Shown piece by piece: positions 3,132 through 34,095 of a DNA stretch of 41,661 bases; position 1 is the first letter of the stretch, and every line of letters begins with the position of its first letter. Below the pieces are notes generated by a model. The model was not told the DNA's origin, did no database searches, and saw only the letters and a list, made by a program, of their open reading frames with translations. The stretch spans positions 1-41,661 of the forward strand of contig JAEOTC010000208.1 of the NCBI GenBank assembly GCA_016840035.1, in the 5' to 3' direction. The position numbers were made by a program, and so were the translations under genes. This DNA comes from Candidatus Hodarchaeota archaeon (GTDB lineage Archaea; Asgardarchaeota; Heimdallarchaeia; Hodarchaeales; Hodarchaeaceae).

Positions 3132-3845
3132 TATTCTTGATAGAGGTTCCTCTCGCTCAATGATACAGAAAATACTTGATTCATCAATCTCAATGATATA
3201 TGCCTTCAGTTTCATTTTACCTATTAGCATTTGGAAATCCTCTACCGAAAATGTTGTGGCAGTGAATCCATCTTTGCACACAATAACTCCATTTCCTGTC
3301 AGTGCGAAATCGATCTCACCCAGTAATCCTTCCTGACTTTGTTGGATAAACCAGTTCAAACGTTCTTCCCAGATATTTTCCGAATAACTTGATAAAATTA
3401 CTTTTCCCCCGATTTTCGTTACTCTCAACGCCTGAGTTATCAGGATCTCGGGATCAATCTTCATTGCTGATATGGCATTTTGAATTCCTAGGACAACGTC
3501 AAATGACTCTTCGGGAAATTGGATTTTTCTTGCAGTCATGAAATGTAAATCAACATTTGAAATCTCCTTTAAATACTCTTTTGCATATGCTAAGGATGCT
3601 TCCGAGATATCAATTCCTATTATTTTCCTCCCTTTAGTAGCGACATGTTTTAGTACCCGTCCGTATCCACATCCAAGTTCTAACACAGTATCTGTTGTTT
3701 TAATCTGATCTAGCACATATTCAATTTCAGCCTGTAGATATTGTTGTATCCGTTCTGGAGCTGTTTCATATGCCTGTTTCAGCTTGAGTGCAAATAACTT
3801 CTTCGCATAATATTGACTATTTTGTACCCTGCTATTTGGATCCAT
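3123..3845 (-). CDS. Class I SAM-dependent methyltransferase
   Basis: Motif I VLELGCGYG, IIGIDIS, FPEESFDVV, LRVTKIGGKVI. Confidence 0.9.
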   Translation of the reverse strand: MDPNSRVQNSQYYAKKLFALKLKQAYETAPERIQQYLQAEIEYVLDQIKTTDTVLELGCGYGRVLKHVATKGRKIIGIDISEASLAYAKEYLKEISNVDLHFMTARKIQFPEESFDVVLGIQNAISAMKIDPEILITQALRVTKIGGKVILSSYSENIWEERLNWFIQQSQEGLLGEIDFALTGNGVIVCKDGFTATTFSVEDFQMLIGKMKLKAYIIEIDESSIFCIIEREEPLSRITK

Positions 3846-11070: not shown

Positions 11071-12111
11071 TTGGTGGCTCTTTTCGTGAATAGAAGTTCG
11101 AAATCTTCTCGTGAAGCTATCTCAGAAGGAGTTATTTTTTCCGCATTCGAGGATCATGGACCTACCAATATTTACAATTCTTCTCCATTAACTGAAGAAG
11201 AAGCGTTTGGAATGACAATTAAGACATTAACTGCCATCGGGTCTGACTCTCCTTTTCAGCCAGGAGAGATACGATGCTACGGGCCAATGCCCACCCCGAG
11301 GGATCCGTATCTTTCGTTAGGATTTATTTTCTTCTTAAAGCCTAAATCGACTGAAGACCCTCGGATCCAAAGACATGGTCGAATGATCGTTCTATGGGTA
11401 ATCACAAGTTCTGCAACTACCATAAAATATATCGGTTTAATAAAAAATATGATTAGGCGCAATCTTCAGACATATCATGTTCGGTTTGATGAAGATTTAA
11501 AAGAACGAGATGTTTTGTCAAAAATCGATGAAAAAATTCGACTGATAGAACTGGGTGTAACTCTATACTATATCTCAAGGACGGGGAGTATTGATCCCAT
11601 AATTGATCCTGGATTTATTGCCCCTGATACTACTTGTATTTTGTTAGATGACGCAAATAGACAGATTAAAGCCCTCTTACGATCAAAAATTACCCCTGGG
11701 AAAAAAAATGAGCTCCTTCAACAATTAAACGATTTTAAGTCTAAAATCCCCCAGGGAGCAATGTATAAAATCGAGATTATTTCTGATGAAATAGCGGTAC
11801 AACAACTATCATCAAGATATGGACTTTCTCGACCCGACGAAATGGGATTTCGATTCCAGTTACACTTAGCAGATGTCGTTACTTTTGAAGAGTTGGATGC
11901 TTTCTTTGAATTTCATCTCAACCCTAAACGTCACGATATGATATCTAGTATTTTAAGTGCAATATACAATAAAGAAAAATTGAACTTATTTGATGTAGCT
12001 GTCCAGACAGGGGTTTCGGTGGAATTTATGGAGGAGTTTATCCAAAGCGCAATCACAGCAAATCTAATCAAGAATGCTACTATAGAACACGGTTTTCTCG
12101 TGTGTAATTGA
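11071..12111 (+). CDS. Multidomain protein: longin/uDENN-like + gelsolin-like + PCI/winged-helix-like
   Basis: N-terminal GVIFSAFEDHGP...FIFFLKPKSTEDPRIQRHGRMIVLWVI; middle LYYIS...CILLDD...KIEIISDE; C-terminal LNLFDVAVQTGVSVEFMEEFIQSAITANLIKNATIEHG. The real start may be GTG 11086. Domain calls are by eye. Confidence 0.6.
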   Translation: MVALFVNRSSKSSREAISEGVIFSAFEDHGPTNIYNSSPLTEEEAFGMTIKTLTAIGSDSPFQPGEIRCYGPMPTPRDPYLSLGFIFFLKPKSTEDPRIQRHGRMIVLWVITSSATTIKYIGLIKNMIRRNLQTYHVRFDEDLKERDVLSKIDEKIRLIELGVTLYYISRTGSIDPIIDPGFIAPDTTCILLDDANRQIKALLRSKITPGKKNELLQQLNDFKSKIPQGAMYKIEIISDEIAVQQLSSRYGLSRPDEMGFRFQLHLADVVTFEELDAFFEFHLNPKRHDMISSILSAIYNKEKLNLFDVAVQTGVSVEFMEEFIQSAITANLIKNATIEHGFLVCN

Positions 12112-12119
12112 TTGCAAAA

Positions 12120-13019
12120 TTACAGTAGTTTGTTAACCGTTTCCGCCATTTTGTCTAATTTTACCAGAGTAAATTGAGCTGAACCAGAGGTATTTGCTAT
12201 CCCTATAAACAACAGGTCTTTTTTGAGTTTTTGAAACGCTAATATATTGTCATCAACTTCCATGGTCGTCTTGAAAGTCTTTGCTTTTGTATATTCAGTT
12301 TTCAGCTTTCCATAATTTGCTAGGGTAAGATTAGCTGGTAGCATAAAATAAGAATAGTTCCCTTGCTCAAATAATGGGACTCCTTCCTCATTACATACAA
12401 TTATCCCTGTTACGTCAGAATGTGTGGATAGAAATTCCTGGATCGCATCGGAAACTGTTAATGCTTTCGTGGATTTGAGAATTAGCGATTGGAGCATTTC
12501 ACCGATCGCTTGATAGACAGAACGATCAAAAATGGAGGTGGTCCGATATTCAATATCTAAATCTCCTTCAATCTCGAAATATGTCTTCATCATTTCATAG
12601 GCTTCATTCTGCTTATCGGTCGTTACTAGATCTCTTTTGTGAAAAAGACAAAAAACTGTGCTATCAGGAGAAAATTCTCGTAATCTTTCGATTCCATGAT
12701 TGAAGTAGAATTTACTTGTTGATACTTGCTCAAAATCACTCATATCAACAACCCAGACAAAGATTGAGACATTACTAAAAATAAACTCTGCCTGATCCCC
12801 AATAAAGGCTGAAATAAAGTTCTCTTGTCCTCCACAATCAAAAAGCTGAAATGAGCTATCAATAAAGTTCTGGGTGGTCCGCGAATAATTAATAGTTGCG
12901 TTGTAATCGGATACATCTTCGGGATTTTTCCCTTCAAATACCACAGACCGTATACTACTTTTCCCACTCGCTCCTAGGCCCATTAATAACACTTTTTGGG
13001 GTGATTGAGAACTTATCAC
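12120..13019 (-). CDS. Rag-family (Gtr1/RagA-like) small GTPase with C-terminal roadblock domain
   Basis: KVLLMGLGASGKSSIRSVVF (G1), ATI (G2), LFDCGGQ (G3), IFSNV, FSPD..VFCLFHKRD (G4), TTSIFD (G5) match Rag-specific motifs; ~115-aa tail with VTGIIVCNEEGVPL has a roadblock pattern. Confidence 0.92.
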   Translation of the reverse strand: MISSQSPQKVLLMGLGASGKSSIRSVVFEGKNPEDVSDYNATINYSRTTQNFIDSSFQLFDCGGQENFISAFIGDQAEFIFSNVSIFVWVVDMSDFEQVSTSKFYFNHGIERLREFSPDSTVFCLFHKRDLVTTDKQNEAYEMMKTYFEIEGDLDIEYRTTSIFDRSVYQAIGEMLQSLILKSTKALTVSDAIQEFLSTHSDVTGIIVCNEEGVPLFEQGNYSYFMLPANLTLANYGKLKTEYTKAKTFKTTMEVDDNILAFQKLKKDLLFIGIANTSGSAQFTLVKLDKMAETVNKLL

Positions 13020-13226
13020 AGTAATCCTTCTACCTACTTTTAGAGATTCTAATTATTTCCTCGTTATGTCGCTATATTTCTTTGACTAGATAATTTATCC
13101 GTCTAAAGGATCTGAATTTAAAATATTTTATAATTATTAAGAGACATTATCATTCTTAGACCTTTCTGAAGAACTTTTTTCCTAATTATCCATTAAGTGT
13201 ATTCTCTGTGACTCGGTGTATTCAAT

Positions 13227-16200
13227 ATGAAAAATGCAGTTAAATTCATTACAGGCCTTGTTTTAGTTATATTTCTAGTTCCAATCCTATCAACATCTAT
13301 TGTACTCCCAATAGATAACTCCCTTGAATCAAAAACTATAGCTATCCCTCCATTGAGAGGTGAAGCTCCTATTACTGAGTCTGAACTCCAAAGAAACATA
13401 GATGATGAAGCAAAATTTCCTGAGTCGTTGGCTACAACCGCCACGGATAACTTCAATCAGATAGGAAGGATTAACCCTAAAGTAGAGGGTACTGGAGTAT
13501 TTATTGAGGATTATGTAGATAATATGATTTCAGATGTTGATTCAAGTCCTGATCTTGGTGAATTGACCGATTTTTCTAATATGCAAGCTACAGATATTTC
13601 TTATTCAAATATAAGTGAAATTTCTTCTTCCGGTGCTATTACAAAAGCAGGAACCGATACAACTGGAACGGGAACTATATCTCCTTTGTCATTCTCTCAT
13701 ACATTAGTTTCTGGTAGTAATAGAATAATTTTAGTTGCTGCTCAAAGTGAAGCGAATTCCGCAAATGATATTTCTGCCACTTATGGAGGACAAACAATGG
13801 TAGAAGCCATTACTCAAACAACAGGAACGACTACAACACAGGTATTGAGCATTTTCTACCTCCTAGAAACAAATCTACCTAGTAACGGAGCTAACACAGT
13901 AGCTATTTCCTATACTGGGACTGTAACAGAGGTGAATGCTTGGTGTGGGCAATGGGATGGTGTCTCTCAAGCAACTCCAGAAGCAACTGATGAAACTGTT
14001 TGGGTATCTGGCCAAACTATTTCTAATACTATTTCTCCTTCAACAGATGCTTGGGTTATATCGACTATAGGTGAAGGGAATTCAGGTTGCACTCATACTC
14101 ATGGTCAAAGCCAAGTAGAAGTCTATGATTTTTCAGATAGTAGTTCTTCCTTTGCGGTTGCTGAATTAAGAGGAGCAAATGGTGAATTATCTTTAGATTC
14201 TACCATCACTGGGTCAATCAACAGAGGAGTAAGAATAGCAGCATCTTTTCAACCTGCAACAGGTGCGAGTGGTTATCAAATGGATCAGGAAGTGCAGTTC
14301 GAAAACGTTTACGAATCACCACTAGTTAGTGAAGAGTTACGGATTAAAACAGGCTCATTTGGAGGGTCAGAGAATATAAACGTAACTTACTGGGATGGGG
14401 ATTCTTGGGAATTAATTACATCCGATTTAACAGCATCTACATGGAATAACTTTACGGTAACTGGCCTACCTACAACTGAACCATATTTTACTATAAAATT
14501 TGGGGGGGGAACCACATCTTCAGACAGTACACAGGATTGGTGGATGATAGATGCGGTATTACTCTATGTCGAAGAGCACCTAGTCATAACCAAGGAGGAT
14601 TATGTAGATCAACAAAGTAATGTGGATTCTAACTCCGATCTTGGATCACATAGTTCATTCAATGATTTACGTGCAACTGATTCGACTTATGACAATATCA
14701 GTGAAATTGAAGCATTCTCTTCTAGTAATACAACGCTGATTGATACTGAATCATTTGAAGGAACTTGGCTACCTTCTGGATGGAGTGAAACGACTGGAAG
14801 TTTATGGAATCAAAATAGCTACCAACCTTATAGTGGGGGGGGAACTTATTATGCAGGATATTATGATCCTTCAACAACCACTTCAGGGAATTTGGATTCA
14901 CCTATTTTGAACACCGCGGATGCCAGTTCAATTTTTATTGAATTTTGGTGGAGAGATTACGCATTAGACAACAATGAATTTTTACTTCAGTTGTATAACG
15001 GAAGTACCTGGATTACTTACCAAGATATGAATTTACTTACACATACAGAGAATACTTGGACATTTTATTCCGTAGAGATCACAGATAGCCAGTACTTTGA
15101 TATGAGTTTCCAGATTCGCTGGAGATCAAATAATGTCGGGCCTGGTGAAGCTAGTGGGATAGATTTAGTTACAGTGCTCAAAAGTGTAACATCAGACTCT
15201 AGTGGTGAATGGAATGATTGGTCTTCTGAACTGTTGTCTAATGGAGGATTTGAGGATGGTAATTTTGGGGGTTGGACAGTTCAAGGAGCAAATTGGGCCG
15301 TTGGAGCTGATGCACCGTCAGGAAGTGCTGGACCTCAAGCTGGTAGTTATACTGCCTTTCAAACTACTCCTTCTTCTGCTACGGATTATATTTATCAGGA
15401 TGTTGATTTGACTTCCTATTCCTCATATATTACCGATGGGAGATTTGTAGTTAATGCTTCTGGATGGCGTGTTTCTTCAGAATATCCTGCACAAGATTTA
15501 TCGAAAATTGTTATACAATTCTTGGATAGTGGTCTTGGTCTTATATCAACTCCATTGGATACAGGATACGATGATTTAGCTTCGTGGACAAAAGAGGGAA
15601 TATATAATGCAACCGTTCCAACCAATACAAGATATATTAGAATATTTGGCTACACTGATGAAGGTAACACTTGGGATTCTGGCAATGTAGATTCTTTTTC
15701 TATCAAAGTGCGAACAAAACAAGCAAATGGAAGTAATTATCATTTGGATCAAGAGGTGCAATTTGTGGGAGTATATGATTCTCCTCTTCTTATTGAGCAA
15801 TTATGCATTAGAACTGGTTCTTTTGGCGGATCTGAAAATCTAAATGTGACTTATTGGGATGGAGATTCTTGGGAGTTACTTGACTCCGCATTAACCGCGT
15901 CTTCTTGGAATAATTATACCGTTACTCTCACAAGTCCTACATTTACCATTAAATTTGGTGGATCTACAACCTCTTCTGATAGTATTCAAGATTGGTGGGA
16001 AATTGACTCAGTCTTACTCAAAGTTGAAACTCCAGAAGAAGCTGTAGGCGATGATTCTGGATTTGTCTGGCTTGATACCCCTGATGAAGTCGATCTGGGT
16101 ACAACCTACAATTCATGGGTGGAACAAGATCTATCTGATGATAGCGTACCTAGTTCAGCAATGGGAGTAATACTTGGTTGGGTGGAGGATAGTACATCCA

Positions 16201-19200
16201 ATCTTCGGGCTGTTGCACGAGGTGCAGATGATACCAATGATTACATGGATGGGGGTACTTCTTACAACCAAATGGAAGCAGAAACATGGAAAATGCAAGT
16301 AGTTAAGCTAAGAGATCATAGATATATTGATACTTGGCGTCAGAGTTCAACTGAAAGACTTTACGTGATGGGTTACACAGTAGGCGAGGATCCTCAATAT
16401 AGAAGAGTCCCTGCTTATATGGGAAGTCTAACAGCAGACTCCACTTGGAATACGATGACTGTTCATGATATTGACAGTGATACTAATGGAGTAATTCTTT
16501 TTGCAAGATCAAGATCAAATCAAGACTCTACTATTATGGTTAGAGCTGTTGGTTCAACAGATTCTATGACGAATAGAGAGTGGGAAAATCATGTAAGTGG
16601 TACTTTTTTTGTTAAGCTTGATGCTAATGACCAGTTTGAATACTATATTACCAGTGCGAGATTAGCAGATTTTTATTTAGTTGCTGAAGTCAAGGATAAT
16701 ATTGATTGGCTGGATACAAATCGAGATTCTATATCAGCTACATCAACTGGTTGGACGATTCGAGATCTTGATAGCTATGTTACTGTTCCTTCTTCTACCT
16801 CTGGAGTATTACTTCAACATGATTCAACAGGAGGAATAGATGATTACAAGAATATTGCTCGGGAATATGGGCAAACCTGGACCTTTCCTGATTACGATGT
16901 AGGGATAGATCAATGGATGATGGGAGGTAGTGGAATTGATTCAGAAAATCGAATTCAGATATATGCAGAAAGTTTAGAACAAGATGTCTATATCCATGCA
17001 TTAACACTTTATCAGGATAATACTCCCCCAACTATAGATGCTTTTGGTGTTGAAGATCCAGGAACTGGTACTGCTACGTTTTGGGCGTCTCTAACAGACC
17101 TATCTGACCTAGACAATGTTACACTGACAGTTAATGGAACAGATTATCAAATGAGTTTTAATGGTTCTCATTGGACAAAAGATCTTACAGTTAATTGGTT
17201 GGGGTACTATACGTATCAGATTACAAATGCTTCTGATATTTTTGGTAATTTTTTAACAACTTCTTCCAACATGCAAAATTATACTTTTGCCTATGATACT
17301 GTTGCCCCATCGGCTATAGATTGGGAATATTATCAGGGTGCTGATGGCACTTGGGATAATCAGAATAATACGTTTAAGGCAAATGTTAGTGATTCTTGGG
17401 GAGAAATCGATACTGTGATACTTGAGGTAACTACTTCCTCCCAAACTGCAATGATGAAAGAATATCAAGATTTCAGTGGTATTCTCGGGTTTATCAATAA
17501 CACTTTAGAGTTAGATAATGGGGGAATAGATTTTCGAATAATAGTTAATGACACTAGTGGTAATGAAATTACTTCCTCTATTCATTCAGATTCTGTGTTT
17601 TATAATCATCCTCCAACTGCATCTAACCTTGCCCTAAATACTGACCCGTATTATAGTAATACTTCATTAATTCTTAGCTATTCATATTCGGACCCTGATT
17701 CTCATCCTCAAAGCGGAACTGAGATCCGCTGGTACAAAAATGGGATTTTACAAGGAGTCCATAATAACTCTGTAAGTATTAATCCAAGCTACTTATTTAC
17801 TGGAGATCAGTGGAATGCCACCGTAAAACCAAAAGATGGTACTTTATTTGGAGAGATCAATATATCTTCAACGATTACTATCAGTAATACTCCTCCCACG
17901 CCAACAGATGTTATAATTCTACCTAACAATCCTGTTACTTCATCGACTCTGATAGTTGACTTTAATTACTATGATTATGATGGAGATTCAGAAAATACTG
18001 GCTATCGTCAGATTGAATGGTATAAGGTTGGAACAGGACATCTAGGTACGTTTGATAATCAAACCTCTTTATCTTCGTCAAATACTGTTAAAGGGGAACA
18101 ATATTATGTAAGAATCCGAGTATTCGATGGAGAGTCATATTCAGTTTGGCTCACTAGTCCAATTATAACGATAGGTAACAGCATACCTAATGCAGTGAAT
18201 CTATCTTTACCCACTAATCCTACAAATACCACTGACCTAATAGCTAGCTGGGAAATGCAAGATGCAGATATAGGGGATGTAGAAAATACATCTGCAGTAA
18301 TTATCTATTGGTATAAGAATGGTGTTCTTCAACCCCTTTGGAATAACTCGGTCATAATTGGAGCGGGGAATACAACGAAAGGACAAATTTGGTGGTTTAA
18401 GATACAAGTCTTTGACGGAGAAAACTATTCTTCACTTACTGAACTACTTCCCCACGTTGAAATTGTTAATGCAATTCCAGTAGTCACTGATGTATCTATT
18501 GTAATTTCTACTCCCTATACAACTGATGATCTGGTCACTGATGCGTGGACCTTCACTGACGCTGATAATGATGGTGAGGGCACACCAATTATTCGTTGGT
18601 ACCGTAATAACATACTACAATCTGCTTATAATGGGTATACAACTCTTCCAGCCTCTGTCACAGCAAAGGGAGAAAATTGGCATTTTGGTGTGCAAGTTTA
18701 CGATGGATCAGCTTACTCATTACAGGTAAATTCATCACAAGTTCTTATCCAAAATACCGTTCCTGATGTAGATAATCTTACACTGACCTCTATTCCCACA
18801 ACCACTGATGATTTATTAGCTAGTTGGACCTATACCGATGAAGACTTGGATGGTCTGTCCTTCAACATTACCTGGTATCTGAATAATGTATATAATTCTA
18901 GTTGGATTACAGCAACAAATAGTGCCACATTAAATGCTGGCAATACTTCCAAATATCAACAATGGTATTATACAATTCGAGCTTATGATGATGATGATTA
19001 TTCAACTCTTATTTCACTGGGTAGCAATATAACTATCCAAAATTCAATTCCCACTACCTCTTATGCTAATTTTACTACATTAAATCCCTCTACTGTTGAT
19101 GATTTTAATTTAACCTATGGATTTGTGGATAACGATGGTGATTTGGAGTTTGCGAATGATATTATAGTCTATTGGTATGTAAATTGGGCGTATCAGTCGC

Positions 19201-22200
19201 AATATGAAAACCAGACCTCCATATATAGTGATAATACCACCACAGGTGAGATTTGGTATTATATTATCCGAGTGTTTGATGGTGAAGGCTATAGTGACAA
19301 TGTTACTTCAGATACTGGAGTAATTATAGGTGGAGGTTTAAATTTTAAGCCAACAGCAGAAAATTTAACATTAACTCCAATTTTTCCTCTTACAAGTGAT
19401 GATTTAATTGCAGATTATGATTACTCTGATCCGGAAAATAATGATGAAATCGCATTCGAGATTCAATGGTTTATGGATGGAGTTCTTCAAGAAGATTATC
19501 AGACATTGACCCTACCAGCTAGTGCAACGTCAAAAAATCAGCAATGGAATTTTACGATTCGTGTTTTTGATGGTTTACAATGGAGTGATCTAAATAATTC
19601 ACAGGTTTACACTATTGGTAATACAGCTCCTGGAGTAAGTGGAATAGATGCTACTTCTGATCCAACGACAAGTAATGATTTGTTTGTAAGTTGGAGCTCC
19701 TCCGATCAGGATTCCGATACCTTAACTTTCAATGTAACATGGATTCTAGATGGGACGAAAAATTCCAGTTTATTAACCTCTGATCATTTTGCGATACTAG
19801 GTGCAGGAAACACAACAAAAGGAGACAATTGGAATATTACCATTGAAGCTTATGATGGAGATGGTGGATATTCCACTATACTTACCCTTGGAACAACAAT
19901 TTCTATCATAAATACTAATCCTCTCGCAGAAAACCTCACCCTTAATCTTCTTCCCAAGACTGGTGACGATTTAACTGCCAATTGGGATTTTTTCGACATC
20001 GACAATGATTTAGAAGATACAGATGGAACAATTATTTTCTGGTACAAAAACGGTGATTTACAAGCATCGTGGACAAATTCTACTACAATTGGGTTTGGAA
20101 ATACCTCGAAAGGCCAGGTATGGTGGTATAAAATACAAGTGTATGATGGTGAGCAGTACTCAACACTTACCGAATTTCTTCCTCATATTGAAATCCAAAA
20201 TACAGCACCTGTTAATGTTTCAATTCTTCCTCTGCCAACTTCCCCGAGTGTTGAAAGTGAGATTGATTTAACACTCTCTTCAGTTCTTTCCTCATTTACT
20301 GATGCAGATGGGGATTCAATTGAATTAGTAGAGCTACGTTGGTACAAAAATGGAGTTCTACAAGTTAATCTAAATGATTCTTTGTCGATTTCAGGAAGTA
20401 AATTAGCTAGAGGGGATAATTGGTCATATACAACAATAGTCTCTGATGGCTTAGAATTTGCAGTATTGTCTCAATCATCAGAATTTCAGATCCTTAACTC
20501 CCTACCAAATCTTTTGGGGGCTTATTTCACTGAAGCAGGTGTAAAAACGATACATAATCTCACAGCTAACTATTTGTATGAGGATGCTGATGGTGATGTC
20601 ATTAACGTCTTTGAAATTCGATGGTATCGATCCACGAGTCCTTATATCGCATATACGCTAAATCCTGCTTATGATGGCTACTTGAGTCTTCCTTATACAG
20701 CAACGACCAAGAATGAACGGTGGAAGTTCAATATTACACTTTCAGATGGGTTCAATGCATCAACCTGGGTTCTATCTGATTATATTGCTATAGAAAACAG
20801 CATACCATGGATAGATCCGTATAGTATAGTCCTAACAGGTGGATTAACTACATCAGATCCTCTCAATGTCACTTTTATGTGGTATGATGATGATCCTGGG
20901 GATGTCCAAAGTGGGACAAGTTTCAGATGGGATGGTCCTTTTGTTACCAATCCTTCATCCAATCGTGTTCTGAATTCATCGGTCACAAAGGCAGGTGAGA
21001 CATGGTCAGTGCGTATTACTCCAGGTGATGGTACTGACTTAGGAGATGTAGTCGAAAGTAAATTATATGGTATAAGCATCATTATTGGTAATACTCCACC
21101 TGAAATCCCTGGAAATGAGATAAAGATACAGGGATATGATCCTATTAATGGTTCCTACAGTGATGGAGTTGCTTTCGGCTCGAATGTTGATCTGATAGTA
21201 CGGTACAATGTAAGTGATGTTGACGGTTTACAGGGAGTATCTGCTTATGATGTTTTTCTGGTTGATGGATATGCTTACGGATCTCAATATCGGTGGTTCA
21301 GAAATCGATCTGGTGTGGTAACTTTAATTCCCGCCCTAAATGGAATGACAACAGTTCCATCCTCCTTTATTCAAAGAGATGACCTTTGGTGGGTAGAAGT
21401 CACTCCCCGAGACTTATATGGAGATTTTGGTGTAAGTCAAAATTCTACTGAAATTAGTATCACAAATTCTGCTCCATATTTGGCCAGCCTTTCTTGGACC
21501 CAATCAGCATTTTATGCAAGCGATGATCTTTCGTTTGACTATGTTTTTGCAGATAGGGATCTTACAGATGTCGAATATGGTAGCATTATCGAATGGTACC
21601 TTAATGGGATTAATCAATCTGATTTTCACAGCTTTGTGAGTATTTCCTTCCAAAATACCTCTAAAGGTGATGTTTGGTATGCTAGAATTAGAGTATGGGA
21701 TGGTGACCTATACAGTAATTGGTTTTCCCTACCAAATATTACCATCCTTAATACAGATCCTATTGCTTCTAACATCCTTCTTACACCAGCTTCTCCAACA
21801 GCAACACAAAATCTAACAGTTAATTGGGATTATTCCGATTACGATAACGACGGTCAGCAATCTCCGAGAATTCGCTGGTATAGAAATAATATCCTACAAG
21901 TTATACTCAATGATGTGACCACGGTCAATGCTAGCTACTTGAATAGAAACGATTTCTGGTATGTGACAGTCGAAGCATTTGATGGAGAGAATTATTCCAT
22001 CTTGATTACATCTTCAAGTATAACAGTAATCAATTCTCCTCCAACACTAAAAAATGTAGTTTTATGGAATAATAATGATCTTTCTAATACCAGTTATACC
22101 GATGGTGTCATTATAATTTTAGATCTTGACTATGTTGATGATGATGGCGATTTACTAGATACAGGATCTACTAGTATTCAATGGTATCGCAATGGGGCAC

Positions 22201-24020
22201 ATCTTCCCTTATTCGATAATCAAACAAGCATTTCTAGCGGTGAATTGCAGAAAGGTGATTCTTGGTATGCTATAGTTCAAGTTTTGGATTTAGGTGGAAC
22301 AGTATGGTCAGATAACTTAACCTCTCAAACAATCACTGTGATAAATAAAGCCCCAGAAGTGACTTCTCTAACATTCTTAGAGGAACCAGGTTATCTTCTC
22401 GAAAATGAAAATATTTCACTGATCTTGATAATTTTCGATCCCGATGTCAATGATACTGATTCCTCCCTTATTGAATGGATGATTAATGGAACTTTGCAAC
22501 CACAATACACGGATCTAAGAGTAATCTCCTTTTCTGACACGAATCCTGGTGAAAATTGGACTGTAATCATTACACCATCAGATGGAGTGGATTATGGATC
22601 CATAGTCTCTCGTTCGATTATTATTGAAAGCGTTCCCTATATTCAGAATTTGACTGCAATCATTGAACAAGATAGTGATGGGCATTTTACTTTTGGAGTC
22701 CAAGTCCTCGATGCCCTTCATGATATTTCCTCTGTTGAATATGAAGTCCTGTTAAATGGAACAGTTCTTGATTTTGAAGATATCGTGAATTCACCAAATG
22801 CCACCGATTACTGGCTTCTTGATTATACCCTATCAGCTCCTGATTACTATAATACAAAAGCATTGATTGTAATTAACGCTATATCTACTCGTGGTATCCG
22901 ATCAACTAGATCATTCAACTTCACGATCATTGATGGAGTTGCTCCTCGGATATCGGAGTCAGGTCTGGGCGTATGGTTTGTAAAGGATAAAGATGATCCG
23001 ACGAATCTAACTTTCTATGCAGATATTGAAGAATATGGTTCTGGAATAGCAAATGTAACCCTATACTATTACTACAATCCTGATGAAGCAGGTGATGGAG
23101 CAAGCGCACTTCAAGAGTTTACTGAAGTTCTCATGACTTTAGAAAATTCTTTTGATGGAACCTTCAGATATAGTATTACAGTTCCATATCCCCAAGATGA
23201 TCTTGATTATGAGATACTTTATCTGGTTTCTACTCAAGATATGGAAGGAAACAGTGATCCTGCAGCATTTGACATTCATGATTATCCAGATAGGATATCA
23301 AATGAAAAAGTCGTTCAGATTACTGCAGGTGGATTACCAGAATATGTGTTGTATGTTGCTGGAGCTGCTGTGTTCCTTATATTCGTTGGCTCAATAGTTT
23401 ATGTACGATTTATCAGAAAACCCGAGTTGGTCGGATTAGACAAAGAACTCGTTATGAAAACTCAAAAGAAAATACGAGAGGAGGATATCTCGGCTAGTAT
23501 CGAAGAACATTCAATAGGTATCATTGTATCATTTTTCGCCCAAAGACAAGGACCAATACCCATCATTGTCTTCCCTGAAGTTCTTAAAGACAACTTCACT
23601 AAATTAATTGAAATATCTGATCGATCGTTCAATAATTGTGGGTTTGCTAACACGTTTGATCGCCAGATTGCTTCTAGTTTTGATATTGACCTTACTGACA
23701 CCCTATCTGTTCGCTCCATGTCATTCGGTTTTGCATTAAATCGACCTGAAGCCCGTGGAGGTAAGGAAAATCTTACTCTCAATATCTTACTCTTTGAGGG
23801 TATGTTTTCCATTCTCAATCACTTCCAAATGGAAATCCAAGCTCGGGTTCGCACTATTCATAAATTGATGGATGTCAAACCAGGTGCTAAAGATGAGATT
23901 CGTCAACGAATCTACAATTTGCGTCGTTATGTTTCCTCCATTATATTGGCATATCAAGAAATTTATGGGTTGGAACCTCCTGTAATGGAAATGCCAGATA
24001 TATTAGGTTTCGATGGATAA
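13227..24020 (+). CDS. Giant (3597 aa) type-I membrane protein: jelly-roll/lectin-like heads, cadherin/Ig-like stalk, single TM, cytoplasmic longin-like domain
   Basis: N-terminal signal peptide; many N-x-S/T sequons; 17 tandem ~95-aa repeats; TM YVLYVAGAAVFLIFVGSIVYV followed by RFIRK; ~200-aa tail with IIVSFFAQRQGPIP and FALNRPEARGG. Confidence 0.9.
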   Translation: MKNAVKFITGLVLVIFLVPILSTSIVLPIDNSLESKTIAIPPLRGEAPITESELQRNIDDEAKFPESLATTATDNFNQIGRINPKVEGTGVFIEDYVDNMISDVDSSPDLGELTDFSNMQATDISYSNISEISSSGAITKAGTDTTGTGTISPLSFSHTLVSGSNRIILVAAQSEANSANDISATYGGQTMVEAITQTTGTTTTQVLSIFYLLETNLPSNGANTVAISYTGTVTEVNAWCGQWDGVSQATPEATDETVWVSGQTISNTISPSTDAWVISTIGEGNSGCTHTHGQSQVEVYDFSDSSSSFAVAELRGANGELSLDSTITGSINRGVRIAASFQPATGASGYQMDQEVQFENVYESPLVSEELRIKTGSFGGSENINVTYWDGDSWELITSDLTASTWNNFTVTGLPTTEPYFTIKFGGGTTSSDSTQDWWMIDAVLLYVEEHLVITKEDYVDQQSNVDSNSDLGSHSSFNDLRATDSTYDNISEIEAFSSSNTTLIDTESFEGTWLPSGWSETTGSLWNQNSYQPYSGGGTYYAGYYDPSTTTSGNLDSPILNTADASSIFIEFWWRDYALDNNEFLLQLYNGSTWITYQDMNLLTHTENTWTFYSVEITDSQYFDMSFQIRWRSNNVGPGEASGIDLVTVLKSVTSDSSGEWNDWSSELLSNGGFEDGNFGGWTVQGANWAVGADAPSGSAGPQAGSYTAFQTTPSSATDYIYQDVDLTSYSSYITDGRFVVNASGWRVSSEYPAQDLSKIVIQFLDSGLGLISTPLDTGYDDLASWTKEGIYNATVPTNTRYIRIFGYTDEGNTWDSGNVDSFSIKVRTKQANGSNYHLDQEVQFVGVYDSPLLIEQLCIRTGSFGGSENLNVTYWDGDSWELLDSALTASSWNNYTVTLTSPTFTIKFGGSTTSSDSIQDWWEIDSVLLKVETPEEAVGDDSGFVWLDTPDEVDLGTTYNSWVEQDLSDDSVPSSAMGVILGWVEDSTSNLRAVARGADDTNDYMDGGTSYNQMEAETWKMQVVKLRDHRYIDTWRQSSTERLYVMGYTVGEDPQYRRVPAYMGSLTADSTWNTMTVHDIDSDTNGVILFARSRSNQDSTIMVRAVGSTDSMTNREWENHVSGTFFVKLDANDQFEYYITSARLADFYLVAEVKDNIDWLDTNRDSISATSTGWTIRDLDSYVTVPSSTSGVLLQHDSTGGIDDYKNIAREYGQTWTFPDYDVGIDQWMMGGSGIDSENRIQIYAESLEQDVYIHALTLYQDNTPPTIDAFGVEDPGTGTATFWASLTDLSDLDNVTLTVNGTDYQMSFNGSHWTKDLTVNWLGYYTYQITNASDIFGNFLTTSSNMQNYTFAYDTVAPSAIDWEYYQGADGTWDNQNNTFKANVSDSWGEIDTVILEVTTSSQTAMMKEYQDFSGILGFINNTLELDNGGIDFRIIVNDTSGNEITSSIHSDSVFYNHPPTASNLALNTDPYYSNTSLILSYSYSDPDSHPQSGTEIRWYKNGILQGVHNNSVSINPSYLFTGDQWNATVKPKDGTLFGEINISSTITISNTPPTPTDVIILPNNPVTSSTLIVDFNYYDYDGDSENTGYRQIEWYKVGTGHLGTFDNQTSLSSSNTVKGEQYYVRIRVFDGESYSVWLTSPIITIGNSIPNAVNLSLPTNPTNTTDLIASWEMQDADIGDVENTSAVIIYWYKNGVLQPLWNNSVIIGAGNTTKGQIWWFKIQVFDGENYSSLTELLPHVEIVNAIPVVTDVSIVISTPYTTDDLVTDAWTFTDADNDGEGTPIIRWYRNNILQSAYNGYTTLPASVTAKGENWHFGVQVYDGSAYSLQVNSSQVLIQNTVPDVDNLTLTSIPTTTDDLLASWTYTDEDLDGLSFNITWYLNNVYNSSWITATNSATLNAGNTSKYQQWYYTIRAYDDDDYSTLISLGSNITIQNSIPTTSYANFTTLNPSTVDDFNLTYGFVDNDGDLEFANDIIVYWYVNWAYQSQYENQTSIYSDNTTTGEIWYYIIRVFDGEGYSDNVTSDTGVIIGGGLNFKPTAENLTLTPIFPLTSDDLIADYDYSDPENNDEIAFEIQWFMDGVLQEDYQTLTLPASATSKNQQWNFTIRVFDGLQWSDLNNSQVYTIGNTAPGVSGIDATSDPTTSNDLFVSWSSSDQDSDTLTFNVTWILDGTKNSSLLTSDHFAILGAGNTTKGDNWNITIEAYDGDGGYSTILTLGTTISIINTNPLAENLTLNLLPKTGDDLTANWDFFDIDNDLEDTDGTIIFWYKNGDLQASWTNSTTIGFGNTSKGQVWWYKIQVYDGEQYSTLTEFLPHIEIQNTAPVNVSILPLPTSPSVESEIDLTLSSVLSSFTDADGDSIELVELRWYKNGVLQVNLNDSLSISGSKLARGDNWSYTTIVSDGLEFAVLSQSSEFQILNSLPNLLGAYFTEAGVKTIHNLTANYLYEDADGDVINVFEIRWYRSTSPYIAYTLNPAYDGYLSLPYTATTKNERWKFNITLSDGFNASTWVLSDYIAIENSIPWIDPYSIVLTGGLTTSDPLNVTFMWYDDDPGDVQSGTSFRWDGPFVTNPSSNRVLNSSVTKAGETWSVRITPGDGTDLGDVVESKLYGISIIIGNTPPEIPGNEIKIQGYDPINGSYSDGVAFGSNVDLIVRYNVSDVDGLQGVSAYDVFLVDGYAYGSQYRWFRNRSGVVTLIPALNGMTTVPSSFIQRDDLWWVEVTPRDLYGDFGVSQNSTEISITNSAPYLASLSWTQSAFYASDDLSFDYVFADRDLTDVEYGSIIEWYLNGINQSDFHSFVSISFQNTSKGDVWYARIRVWDGDLYSNWFSLPNITILNTDPIASNILLTPASPTATQNLTVNWDYSDYDNDGQQSPRIRWYRNNILQVILNDVTTVNASYLNRNDFWYVTVEAFDGENYSILITSSSITVINSPPTLKNVVLWNNNDLSNTSYTDGVIIILDLDYVDDDGDLLDTGSTSIQWYRNGAHLPLFDNQTSISSGELQKGDSWYAIVQVLDLGGTVWSDNLTSQTITVINKAPEVTSLTFLEEPGYLLENENISLILIIFDPDVNDTDSSLIEWMINGTLQPQYTDLRVISFSDTNPGENWTVIITPSDGVDYGSIVSRSIIIESVPYIQNLTAIIEQDSDGHFTFGVQVLDALHDISSVEYEVLLNGTVLDFEDIVNSPNATDYWLLDYTLSAPDYYNTKALIVINAISTRGIRSTRSFNFTIIDGVAPRISESGLGVWFVKDKDDPTNLTFYADIEEYGSGIANVTLYYYYNPDEAGDGASALQEFTEVLMTLENSFDGTFRYSITVPYPQDDLDYEILYLVSTQDMEGNSDPAAFDIHDYPDRISNEKVVQITAGGLPEYVLYVAGAAVFLIFVGSIVYVRFIRKPELVGLDKELVMKTQKKIREEDISASIEEHSIGIIVSFFAQRQGPIPIIVFPEVLKDNFTKLIEISDRSFNNCGFANTFDRQIASSFDIDLTDTLSVRSMSFGFALNRPEARGGKENLTLNILLFEGMFSILNHFQMEIQARVRTIHKLMDVKPGAKDEIRQRIYNLRRYVSSIILAYQEIYGLEPPVMEMPDILGFDG
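17604..22628 (+). repeat. 17 tandem cadherin/Ig-like beta-sandwich repeats (protein-level)
   Basis: Consensus NxxP...L...Y.D.D.D...I.WY.NG..Q...T.KG..W...V.DG..YS...I.I, counted 17 times by eye. Confidence 0.85.
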
Positions 24021-24054
24021 ATTAGAAAAATATAGGAGGTTTTTATAGCCTCCT

Positions 24055-24840
24055 TTACTTTTTTAGAATTAATTTCTTTAATCCTGCTTTGTACGGTATT
24101 ACTTTCCCATCACAGTAGATGCAAAAAGATCCATACGGATGAAGTGCCTTCTCCTTTGTTTCGTGAACCGTTTTTACTAATTTTGATCGAAATGCTTTCT
24201 CGTTGATATCAGCAAATTCCTCTACATCTTTGATAACCTGTGGTGAGTAAGGACATTGATGGGTGTATAGTACGGTTACACCTTCGTCATCAGGGATGTT
24301 CTCACTTGAGATCGGAAAAAATGAAGGTTTGGTTACCGATTCTAAAAAACTTAGCGCGTGGAGAGAAAATATCCCATCCCCTGCTTCATCTACCTTTTTA
24401 AATCCCATTTTCTCGAAGATTTTCTTACGAGGATAGGAACTTTTCGTAGCAGAGATTCCTACTACTCCATTCATCTTTAGATGTTTAGCATCATCAATTG
24501 CATATTGAATGAGTTCAGAAGCATACCCCTTTCCTTTATGACGACCTACTACCCATAGACAGTGGATGACCATGAAATTATCAGCCTCAATTCCTCTCCA
24601 ATTAAATTCACTCGGAATGTACTCGATAAATCCTCTGTAAGAATACTTATTTGTTTCTTTAACCTTCAAAATCTTGTACTTCAATCCTTCAAGAAAGCGG
24701 GCCTTAATCCATTCGAGTTTATTCTGATAACCTGTTTCTTTTTTCTGTGATTGTTTACAGAACAGTCCTATGGTATCCAAATTATTGGTATTCACATCAA
24801 TAATTTCGTAACTCATCCTATATACACCTGAAACTTTCAT
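24055..24840 (-). CDS. GNAT acetyltransferase with YoaP-like C-terminal domain
   Basis: RGFIEYIP, IHCLWV, HKGKGYASELI, LYTHQCPY; likely start ATG 24816. Confidence 0.85.
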   Translation of the reverse strand: MKVSGVYRMSYEIIDVNTNNLDTIGLFCKQSQKKETGYQNKLEWIKARFLEGLKYKILKVKETNKYSYRGFIEYIPSEFNWRGIEADNFMVIHCLWVVGRHKGKGYASELIQYAIDDAKHLKMNGVVGISATKSSYPRKKIFEKMGFKKVDEAGDGIFSLHALSFLESVTKPSFFPISSENIPDDEGVTVLYTHQCPYSPQVIKDVEEFADINEKAFRSKLVKTVHETKEKALHPYGSFCIYCDGKVIPYKAGLKKLILKK

Positions 24841-24850
24841 TGCTTAAAAC

Positions 24851-25357
24851 TTATTCATCAAAAAAGTTTTGCTCTGCCCACCAGGCGGCCCCATCTTCCT
24901 GCCACTCAGGCCATCCCTTAAGCCAAGGGCCAATATGGCAATCACGGATCCTATCCGAGATGGGGAAGTAAGCTTTAAGATCAATCACAGGAGTTTCATC
25001 CATTGCATCTAAACCTACAACTTGGACAATTCCTGTATTAATATTAACAGATAGTATCTTACTTACTGTGATTCCAATAGGATTGGGACGATATTCGGCC
25101 CGTGTAGCAAAAACTCCAGTTTCTGGTGGATTTTCACCATAAGGTGGAACAATGCTCCATGATTCCAAGTTTCTCATTTCCTCAGTATCATTCTTATGGG
25201 CCCACCAAATAACAAAGACGTGACTGAACTTATCTAGTTCTTTTAATCCTTCACGGAAAGGTTCATCAATGTTTACGAAGTAGTCTGCATTGTATGGATC
25301 CTCTCCTTCTACATGCACATACCCGATTGGTCGTAATTCAAAATTCTTTTTCGGCAT
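24851..25357 (-). CDS. tsaA: TsaA/TrmO-family tRNA (t6A37-N6) methyltransferase-like protein
   Basis: RPIGYV, GLKELDKFSH, GVFATRAEYRPNPIG, GLDAMDETPVIDLK. Confidence 0.88.
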   Translation of the reverse strand: MPKKNFELRPIGYVHVEGEDPYNADYFVNIDEPFREGLKELDKFSHVFVIWWAHKNDTEEMRNLESWSIVPPYGENPPETGVFATRAEYRPNPIGITVSKILSVNINTGIVQVVGLDAMDETPVIDLKAYFPISDRIRDCHIGPWLKGWPEWQEDGAAWWAEQNFFDE

Positions 25358-32773: not shown

Positions 32774-32913
32774 GAGATTGGTTCCTATTCTGCAAATAAG
32801 ATTCTTTGATGAAGTAATGAAGTATGTTAAATCAGAGAATTGTCCTAACAAAAACTCTTTTGATATAAGAATTGTCTTTAAAGGTGATTAGGGACATTGT
32901 AGGTGAATGGTTC

Positions 32914-34095
32914 GTGAAAAAATGGATCAAAATCTTGGTTATATTTCTAATAAGTGTTAATCTTTCTATCATCTTTCCTGTTCAGAGTAGGGTGTTTACT
33001 AGTACTGCATATCCAGAAGCAAGAGCTGGGCATTCAATGGTATATGATCCCATTCATAATGAGATTATTATGTTTGGGGGTATGAGAGACAACTTAAATA
33101 CTCCGAATAGTTATCTAAATGATACGTGGATTTTTTATTGCGCAAATAACTCTTGGAGACAAATTACTCCTATTATTAGTCCTGCTACTAGGGTAACACA
33201 TGATATGATTTATGATTCAGCGAATAAAAAGGCGGTACTGTTTGGAGGAGGAAATAGGGACCAACTATTTAATGATACATGGATTTTTGATCCAGAAACT
33301 CGTACTTGGTGTGAATTAGCTCCCAATAATCGACCTCAACCTGTGAATGATCCTGAACTGTATTATGATCCTTTAAATCAAGCAGTTATTCTATTTGGAG
33401 GATACCTTGAGAACGGATATTCTGATGAGACCTGGAAATATTCGGTATCAAATAATTCTTGGGAACAGATTTTTCCATCAAACAGTCCTTCAAGTCGATA
33501 TGGTCATAGAATGATATATAATACAATGAGTCAAACGGGCTTTTTGTTCGGTGGTCATGCAAATGGTATTAGCGATAGAATAGAAAATGACCTGTGGTTA
33601 TTTAACATAGCAGATAATTCTTGGACTGAATCGACATCTGGAACTCTTCCTTCAACACGTTATTGGCATGATATGGTGTACAATCCGGTTAAAAATGAGT
33701 CAATAGTGTTCGGTGGAAGATCAAGTGCCTTTAATTTCAATTGCAGAGATGATACATGGATCTTTAGTCATGGAACAAATACTTGGGAAGAAATTACCGG
33801 TGAAGGACCATCTGAACGAATGACTTTCTCAATGGTCTATAATTCAAATGATGCTAAAGTCTATCTTTATGGAGGCAACAGAGATCCCAATACAGAGATT
33901 TATAATGATATGTGGGTCTTTTGTACACAAACTAGGTCATGGTCAAAACCTAGCGTGACCTCATCCGTCCAATCTGAAGACATGAGTTCTTCTAGTACAT
34001 CTTCCCCCTCAGAGGACTCTACTTCCTCTCTTTACATAACTAGCCTGCTAATGACACTAACTTTATTAGGTCAAAAACGAAGAAAACGGAAATAA
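32914..34095 (+). CDS. Secreted Kelch-repeat beta-propeller with C-terminal anchor
   Basis: Six P..R..H.M.Y....FGG....NDTW blades; signal peptide from GTG 32914 with AGGTGA SD; Ser-rich linker, hydrophobic stretch and KRRKRK. Confidence 0.9.
   Translation: MKKWIKILVIFLISVNLSIIFPVQSRVFTSTAYPEARAGHSMVYDPIHNEIIMFGGMRDNLNTPNSYLNDTWIFYCANNSWRQITPIISPATRVTHDMIYDSANKKAVLFGGGNRDQLFNDTWIFDPETRTWCELAPNNRPQPVNDPELYYDPLNQAVILFGGYLENGYSDETWKYSVSNNSWEQIFPSNSPSSRYGHRMIYNTMSQTGFLFGGHANGISDRIENDLWLFNIADNSWTESTSGTLPSTRYWHDMVYNPVKNESIVFGGRSSAFNFNCRDDTWIFSHGTNTWEEITGEGPSERMTFSMVYNSNDAKVYLYGGNRDPNTEIYNDMWVFCTQTRSWSKPSVTSSVQSEDMSSSSTSSPSEDSTSSLYITSLLMTLTLLGQKRRKRK

Follow-up and report, generated by a model that had tools for sequence, protein, structure and literature searches.

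A contig of 41,661 nucleotides from a Candidatus Hodarchaeota archaeon (GenBank assembly GCA_016840035.1, contig JAEOTC010000208.1) carries a gene for a Rag-family GTPase flanked by genes for a soluble protein and a giant surface protein, each with a predicted longin domain. This whole stretch, referred to here as the window, is contig C188 of a 4.3-Mb genome that is 87% complete; the source names given to homologs place the host in Hodarchaeales, within the Heimdall group of Asgard archaea. According to the list of open reading frames (ORFs), the trio consists of P0001 (11071–12111, + strand, 346 amino acids (aa)), P0002 (12120–13019, − strand, 299 aa) and P0003 (13227–24020, + strand, 3597 aa). 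The stop codons of the convergent genes P0001 and P0002 are separated by an 8-bp spacer (12112–12119), and P0002 and P0003 diverge from an AT-rich intergenic region of 207 bp (13020–13226).

Protein P0002 matches the Pfam family Gtr1_RagA with an E-value of 5.6e-41 (140.9 bits; the cut-off is 22). The GTPase domain comprises aa ~9–197 (12429–12995, − strand) and is followed by a C-terminal roadblock domain, aa ~198–299 (12123–12428, − strand). The P-loop GLGASGKS, T42, DCGGQ and HKxD are invariant columns in the 44-member family alignment, and P0002 itself carries GLGASGKS, T42, DCGGQ and HKRD; HKxD is the variant of NKxD typical of Rags. Positions 3–286 of the family profile align with residues 2–299 of yeast Gtr1 (310 residues in all; E 1.8e-38), including the C-terminal roadblock. 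Human RagA is found by the same profile at E 1.3e-36 and RagC/Gtr2 more weakly, at about 1e-17 to 1e-12. On account of the Pfam match, the invariant motifs with the full-length Gtr1 alignment and the preference for RagA/Gtr1 over RagC/Gtr2, the sequence of P0002 identifies it as a RagA/Gtr1-like GTPase with a roadblock domain.

Protein P0003 is predicted to be a type I membrane protein. Its hydrophobic segments are a signal-like N-terminus and one further, transmembrane (TM) span at aa ~3372–3393 (23340–23405, + strand, from a hydropathy scan), after which a 204-aa tail begins with the basic sequence RFIRK. In order, the protein comprises the signal-like N-terminus, an N-terminal region without a family, 17 repeats, a membrane-proximal region, the TM span and a longin tail. 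The tandem repeats, of about 97 aa each, occupy aa 1462–3138 of the ectodomain (17610–22640, + strand) and were delineated with an iterated hidden Markov model (HMM) at domain E-values of 1e-22 to 1e-36; paralogous giants have from 11 to 17 of them. Neither P0003 nor five pieces of its ectodomain matched a family in Pfam or NCBIfam. Around aa 690, the sequence 'NGGFEDGNFGGW' is reminiscent of carbohydrate-binding modules. An earlier note on this DNA, made from the letters and the ORFs, had described three adjacent ORFs with gaps of 8 and 207 bp, a RagA-like GTPase-roadblock protein and a single-pass surface protein; the ORF coordinates, the Pfam match with the near-full-length Gtr1 alignment and the hydropathy profile agree with it on all three.

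The cytoplasmic tail of P0003 (aa 3394–3597; 23406–24017, + strand) was modelled with AlphaFold2, using 42 family sequences as the alignment. The model has a mean predicted local distance difference test score (pLDDT) of 91.8 and a predicted template modelling score of 0.86, with the topology β-β-α-β-β-β-α-α. It was compared with 48,161 representatives of the PDB in a fold search independent of Foldseek. The best match was a Lokiarchaeal longin domain (8yqg_B, Z 14.4), followed by chains of the folliculin complex (6nzd_H, Z 12.3), C9orf72-SMCR8 (7o2w_A, Z 11.7), the Lst4 longin (4zy8_C, Z 11.4), the GATOR1 complex (8fw5_B, Z 11.1), C9orf72-SMCR8-WDR41 (6lt0_B, Z 10.6), the SEA complex (8adl_S, Z 10.5), the FLCN-FNIP2 complex (6ulg_N, Z 10.0) and DENND1A (6ekk_A, Z 9.8). 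The longins of adaptor (AP) complexes, TRAPP and SNAREs (VAMP7) reached Z 8.7 at most, and roadblock chains Z 6.2–6.7. Foldseek retrieved the same families, together with PAS/LOV matches at a far larger root-mean-square deviation. By its model, the tail is a longin domain, closer to the longins of GTPase-activating proteins (GAPs) than to other longins; a core of the FLCN/NPRL2/SMCR8 type spans tail residues ~36–187 (23511–23966, + strand). P0003 ends about 17 residues past the last longin helix and has neither DENN nor NPRL2-type C-terminal domains.

At the level of sequence, the evidence stays below threshold. The family profiles of the tail and of P0001, searched against the PDB, retrieved no longin. 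The commonest Pfam family among relatives of the tail is Folliculin, found in 5 of 42, with a best score of 20.3 bits at a cut-off of 23.3; the tail of the window itself has no Folliculin, NPR2 or C9orf72-like match in Pfam. Its neighbours in a language-model atlas are labelled NPR2, Folliculin and C9orf72, all with scores below 0.9, and are to be taken as leads only.

An exhaustive HMMER search yielded 149 cluster representatives of the tail family at E ≤0.001. In nearly all full-length members the match covers the last 190–200 residues, and in most of the representatives, which range from about 200 to 5809 aa, one TM span lies ~200–215 residues from the C-terminus. To judge by the sequences, this pattern is that of receptors in which a single inner module is conserved and the outer parts vary. 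Among 201 genomes of the phylum, each at least 80% complete and searched with a single tail query, 27 bear the tail at E ≤1e-8. It was found in all 11 genomes of the window's family, in 11 of 24 and three of four genomes of two other families of the same class, and in the only genome of a family of another class; it was absent from the searched members of 21 other families, two of which comprise 48 and 45 genomes. By this single query, the tail appears to be a Heimdallarchaeia family, expanded in the genus of the window. A distant subfamily (28–33% identity) closes open frames of 8,821–10,431 aa (G002:C87, G019:C193, G018:C52 and G014:C10), which in genomes G002, G019 and G018 lie about 4 kb from a gene for a tail protein of ~1,540 aa on the same contig; P0002 has no Rag-roadblock match at E ≤1e-60 on the contigs with these frames.

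The soluble protein P0001 is predicted to have three domains. Its AlphaFold2 model has a mean pLDDT of 79.4, rising to about 90 over residues 20–50 and 70–110. The first domain, aa ~14–163 (11110–11559, + strand), is predicted to adopt a longin fold; its matches are 8yqg (Z 11.2), Lst4 (10.4), C9orf72-SMCR8 (9.9), NPRL2 (9.5) and FLCN (8.9), with AP sigma and mu chains at 9–10. A middle α/β domain (aa ~161–258) resembles gelsolin repeats at a borderline Z of ~8.4, and a winged helix (aa ~281–346; Z 8.8) follows, for which 26 of 41 family members give weak matches to Pfam PCI. The 53 homologs, of ~340 aa, are all hypothetical proteins, mostly from Hodarchaeales, and the atlas neighbours of P0001 all score below 0.9. 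A BLASTP match between the tail and the middle part of P0001 (E 0.002 in one comparison) was rejected as chance, the profile probability being 0.03. Contig C35 of the same genome contains a 323-aa open frame (1779–2747, + strand) in which the tail HMM (E 0.0022) and the P0001 HMM (E 2e-6) match the same residues; the protein possibly stands between the two longin families and hints weakly at their common descent.

The two longin proteins share a glycine–proline (GP) motif at the start of the second strand and arginines in the loop between strands 4 and 5. P0001 contains '..VIFSAFEDHGP' and 'FIFFLKPKSTEDPRIQRHGR', and the tail '..IIVSFFAQRQGP' and 'FGFALNRPEARGG'. The GP motif of the tail, G49–P50 (G3442–P3443 of the protein; 23550–23555, + strand), stands where strand 2 begins in the model, at residue 49, and a candidate arginine finger, R117 (R3510 of the protein; 23754–23756, + strand), lies within 'PEARGG' in the strand 4–5 loop. 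Counted among those of the 149 representatives that cover each position, G49 is conserved in 130/130, P50 in 121/130, P52 in 130/130, R117 in 132/137 and R173 in 135/136. In P0001, G30–P31 (11158–11163, + strand) likewise starts strand 2, and the strand 4–5 loop (11362–11382, + strand) carries R98 and R104; G30, P31 and R98 are invariant (41/41) and R104 is kept in at least 90% of members. In the models, these residues occupy the same structural places as those of the tail.

Such a GP motif, at or just before strand 2 and next to the arginine finger, is described for C9orf72, SMCR8, FLCN and NPRL2 in the available part of a recent study (PMC12290439), according to which it is absent from FNIP2, NPRL3, adaptins, TRAPP subunits and DENND proteins. 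An FLCN ortholog in its table S5 reads '...HFCEQHGP...' and '...ADPDARGG...'; the counterpart in the tail reads '...SFFAQRQGP...' and '...NRPEARGG...'. Judged by motif and loop position, R117 of the tail is a candidate equivalent of the catalytic arginines FLCN R164 and NPRL2 R78. Both motifs had been pointed out in the earlier note as common to the two neighbours of the Rag gene, and they prove to be the best-conserved positions of both families rather than a chance resemblance. The same note had suggested a comparison of the tail with FLCN, SMCR8 and NPRL2, which places it in the longin fold with GAP-type longins at Z 10–12.3, directly after the Asgard longin.

The families of the three proteins are repeatedly linked. 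A convergent Rag-roadblock gene stands directly downstream of P0001 in 16 of 21 loci surveyed in species-representative genomes, and two further loci stop at a contig edge. For the tail, coordinates were compared by hand in 24 genomes of the order, 21 of which have the tail, with 1 to 10 matches each. These 24 genomes contain 33 Rag genes matching P0002 at E ≤1e-60, and for 19 of them a tail match lies on the same contig, no more than ~10.4 kb away; about one (~0.8) of 33 would be expected by chance, an estimate based on ~4 tail genes per 4-Mb genome. The other 14 have no tail on the contig, some of these contigs being short or ending beside the gene. In the linked loci, Rag paralogs are 46–60% and tails 48–55% identical. 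The order of the genes also varies: Rag and giant are divergent in the window; the Rag gene is followed after 70 bp by a co-directional gene for a 2120-aa giant on contig C28 of the same genome; a giant is followed after 69 bp by the Rag gene (G013:C4 and G014:C1); and a soluble gene, the Rag gene, a gene for a ~735-aa Rag-like protein and a giant follow one another in L037, L046, L048, L050 and L052. This variety of gene order, combined with the divergence of the paralogs, is a better argument for linkage than the raw count.

Several other loci contain related genes. The genome of the window has 14 matches to P0002 at E ≤0.001, three of which share exactly the P0002 architecture. The other two Rag-roadblock genes, on contigs C157 and C28, are each divergent to a gene for a larger protein, of 714 aa (C157, 1437–3581) and 560 aa (C28, 19418–21100), respectively, whose N-terminal domain is Gtr1_RagA (E 1.4e-31 and 1.5e-28) and whose remainder is without a family; these partners take the position that the giant has in the window. 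On contig C43 (L026:951–4695, − strand), four co-directional genes encode Rag-family GTPases of 334, 314 and 310 aa interleaved with a 268-aa paralog of the soluble GP-motif longin. In the relatives L040, L041 and L043 (~14.7–20.5 kb in L041), the cluster of soluble longin, Rag and ~735-aa Rag-like genes continues with three further genes, for a tubulin/FtsZ-family protein of 444 aa (Pfam Tubulin, E 6.7e-20), a protein of 1141 aa without a family and a soluble protein of 311 aa with a weak match to the tail HMM (E 1e-6). Through the tubulin/FtsZ neighbour, the module may be connected with the cytoskeleton.

Three lines of evidence, namely protein identity and fold, conservation of the GP and arginine residues and recurrent linkage of the families, lead to a reading in which the longin neighbours of this Hodarchaeales Rag locus act on the Rag-type GTPase as GAPs, one of them membrane-anchored and the other soluble. 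We consider this slightly more probable than an even chance. The longin domains would bind to the Rag-like protein at its GTPase domain and would stimulate GTP hydrolysis by means of the conserved arginine beside the GP motif. The membrane-anchored copy would act at the plasma membrane, its activity perhaps depending on binding or clustering of the ectodomain, and the soluble copy would act in the cytosol. The output of the pathway presumably cannot be TOR: a search of this 87%-complete genome gave no PI3K/TOR-type kinase above the cut-off, which supports the TOR independence suggested in the earlier note and fits the statement on the lack of such kinases in Asgard archaea in the accessible text of Liu et al. 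(bioRxiv 10.1101/2020.10.19.343400).

The same architecture could also serve without GAP activity. The longin tail might dock the Rag protein at the plasma membrane in the manner of Ragulator or MglB, perhaps via the roadblock domain and without catalysis, or it might be a guanine nucleotide exchange factor (GEF), as are most longin complexes, among them TRAPP, Mon1-Ccz1 and DENN proteins. In eukaryotic longin GAP pairs, only one subunit is known to have the arginine; here, it is present in both neighbours, a point in favour of a scaffold or GEF. So is the lack, behind the tail longin, of the DENN or C-terminal domains present at that place in FLCN, SMCR8 and NPRL2, and so is DENND1A, a GEF whose Z of 9.8 is just behind those of the GAP longins. 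Longin and roadblock domains are, moreover, general GTPase platforms, as the available part of PMC10933270 has it. However, the GP and arginine are the best-conserved residues of both families, the GP motif is reported in the available part of PMC12290439 for GAP longins and not for FNIP2, NPRL3, adaptin, TRAPP or DENND longins, and roadblock folds match the tail at Z 6.7 at most. A scaffold or exchange-factor role is, in our judgement, unlikely.

A number of observations weigh against a GAP function of both neighbours and against the exact trio as a unit. The fold scores of P0001 do not separate GAP-type from adaptor-type longins, no Pfam model of a GAP longin reaches its cut-off, and the profile–profile comparison of the tail with P0001 is non-significant (probability 0.18 for the untrimmed profiles and 0.08 for trimmed longin cores). 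Both putative longins of the earlier note are predicted to have the longin fold; the tail is of GAP type by rank, and the fold scores of P0001 fit GAP-type and adaptor-type longins alike. The dimer of tail and soluble protein envisaged in that note is a hypothesis. Three of the 21 P0001 loci (L034, L035 and L039) have other genes in place of the Rag gene. The genomes counted are nearly all of one GTDB genus, so that the loci are not independent and the count overstates their independence. A Rag ortholog in G007 (70% identity) has neither neighbour on its 8.4-kb contig. Around the ortholog of the giant in G014, which is 63% identical over aa 816–3595 and 42% in the N-terminal region, the 20 kb examined contain no Rag gene. 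Of 35 tail genes inspected by hand in five good genomes, only about nine have a Gtr1_RagA match within 10 kb. In G006, the 3′ end of the giant gene and the genes downstream are as in the window, the contig beginning inside the giant gene.

In the closest relative, L033 (G005:C41), the segment matching window positions 13096–23757 is missing and the Rag and P0001 genes are intact (74% and 86% identity, respectively). Nucleotide similarity extends to 13095 and resumes at 23758, and only the Rag-proximal 76 bp of the divergent region still align. Between the Rag and GNAT genes of L033 remain, at 12504–12907, the last 86 codons of the giant (81% identity) and a duplicated fragment. That fragment corresponds to aa 3547–3584 at 68% identity, and the retained piece begins two residues past the conserved arginine. 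These remnants indicate that the giant formerly stood at the L033 locus and was then lost, and that the Rag and soluble genes stayed. Because of this loss, of the G014 ortholog without a Rag gene and of the small share of tail genes near a Rag gene, the relation of receptors to Rag genes is many to few at best, and the receptor of the window is dispensable. For the self-contained trio of the earlier note this means that the families are linked (16/21 and 19/33) but that the exact trio is not co-conserved.

That the genes are independent, the giant being an adhesin or envelope protein with a tail for another GTPase family or for its own sorting, the Rag adjacency recent and dispensable and P0001–Rag the only true pair, would agree with the deletion in L033, with the G014 ortholog and with the ~26 of 35 tail genes that have no Rag-family gene within 10 kb, but is made improbable by the 19 of 33 Rag-roadblock genes near a tail gene in at least four arrangements with paralogous Rags and tails, two of these arrangements being operon-like with gaps of ~70 bp.

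The GAP reading can be extended to the receptors as a family. In the extended form, a Heimdall-group family of type I receptors would use a folliculin/NPRL2-type GAP tail to couple extracellular contact or a ligand, at the plasma membrane, directly to a Rag GTPase; the soluble longin would be a second regulator. This further proposal is tentative, and we regard it as possible but doubtful. If true, it would supply the GTPase partner that the available part of PMC12290439 leaves open for the Asgard GP-motif longins, and would represent a pre-eukaryotic form of Rag regulation independent of TOR and of lysosomes. Should the membrane-anchored form act as proposed, regulation of Rags by longin GAPs would predate TOR and lysosomes and would have begun as cell-surface signalling.

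The nearest eukaryotic systems are FLCN-FNIP, acting on RagC/D, GATOR1 (NPRL2-NPRL3-DEPDC5), acting on RagA/B, and C9orf72-SMCR8-WDR41, acting on Arf; these are the best fold matches of the tail after 8yqg. Their longins share with the archaeal proteins the GP at strand 2 and the arginine of the strand 4–5 loop, the tail having 'ARGG' as does the FLCN ortholog, and the likeness to the Rag GAPs extends to the adjacent gene, which encodes a Rag-family GTPase with a roadblock. In contrast to them, the longins at the locus are followed by no DENN, TINI or C-terminal domains, the context includes neither DEPDC5 nor TOR nor lysosomes, one of the two copies forms the tail of a surface protein in the plasma membrane and the arginine is present in both neighbours. 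Ragulator–Rag offers another parallel, in that a membrane-tethered protein with a platform fold is encoded here with a Rag-type GTPase; however, Ragulator consists of lipid-anchored LAMTOR1 and roadblock dimers, whereas the tail is a TM-anchored longin of predicted GAP type that matches roadblock folds at Z 6.7 at most.

Among archaeal proteins, both longins have their top fold match in the Lokiarchaeota Roadblock-Longin (PDB 8yqg; Z 14.4 with the tail, 11.2 with P0001), but the identity is 13–17% and the 8yqg protein is a soluble roadblock–longin fusion; no description of PDB entries 8yqg or 9m28 was found in the literature searched. The FLCN/SMCR8-type longins of Heimdallarchaeia treated in PMC12290439 (Traffic 2025) come from the same clade, have the two motifs and are likewise related by inference to eukaryotic GAP longins. 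Whether the GP-motif longins of Heimdallarchaeia have Arf-related or Rag/Gtr partners is left open in the available part of that paper, which mentions neither membrane-anchored forms nor gene neighbourhoods. Liu et al. (bioRxiv 10.1101/2020.10.19.343400) report, in the portion available, NPRL2-like Asgard longins, some of them fused to two-component signalling domains. As in P0003, one protein combines a longin with a sensory or signalling part, which is read there as TOR-less regulation; in P0003, by contrast, the longin is fused to a giant extracellular repeat protein with a single TM span instead of a two-component domain. The same portion states that most genes of eukaryotic signature proteins lie outside conserved neighbourhoods and that the GTPase family in an FLCN-like operon is distinct from Rag GTPases. 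According to the accessible text of Tran et al. 2024 (PMC10933270), small GTPase genes of Asgard archaea, as found in MK-D1, do not as a rule share operons with longin or roadblock genes, and GTPases are therefore hard to match with their regulators. The main text of Eme et al. 2023 (PMC10307638) contains no mention of Rag, longin, roadblock, GATOR, folliculin or Gtr1. A description of membrane-anchored GAP-type longins or of Rag–longin linkage was not found in the literature searched, the supplementary tables of which may hold relevant data. The statement in the earlier note that nothing similar was known holds, within that literature, for the membrane anchoring and the linkage to Rag genes, but not for GP-motif longins (PMC12290439) or for fusions of NPRL2-like longins with signalling domains (bioRxiv 10.1101/2020.10.19.343400), both of which are published.

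A Rag-roadblock GTPase that stands repeatedly beside two kinds of longin with GP and arginine is a candidate partner for the archaeal GP-motif longins. The main value of these loci lies in matched, clonable sets of GTPase and regulators (299, 204 and 346 aa) with which GAP activity could be assayed directly.

Logan contigs from three runs of one study span the two junctions of the giant gene without mismatch. The pieces cover 12960–13221 and 13055–13347 on the Rag side and 23691–25000 and 23747–25000 on the downstream side. These runs consist of DNA contigs, no RNA data set was listed for the locus, and the window was possibly assembled from the same study, so that the support is not independent. 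Contigs of three runs (X2, X3 and X4) share a loose end that departs from the window sequence after position 13135, inside the divergent intergenic region. It probably reflects a co-occurring strain with a different sequence, perhaps one without the giant gene at this point.

The genes surrounding the trio are unrelated to it by Pfam and encode a subtilase, a metallo-beta-lactamase-fold protein, a zinc alcohol dehydrogenase, a GNAT acetyltransferase, TrmO, an ArsR-type regulator and a cation efflux protein. A Kelch-repeat β-propeller protein of 407 aa, a member of a eukaryote-like family, is encoded 9 kb downstream (32872–34095, + strand; Pfam E 2.9e-62) and is unlinked to the Rag and longin genes.

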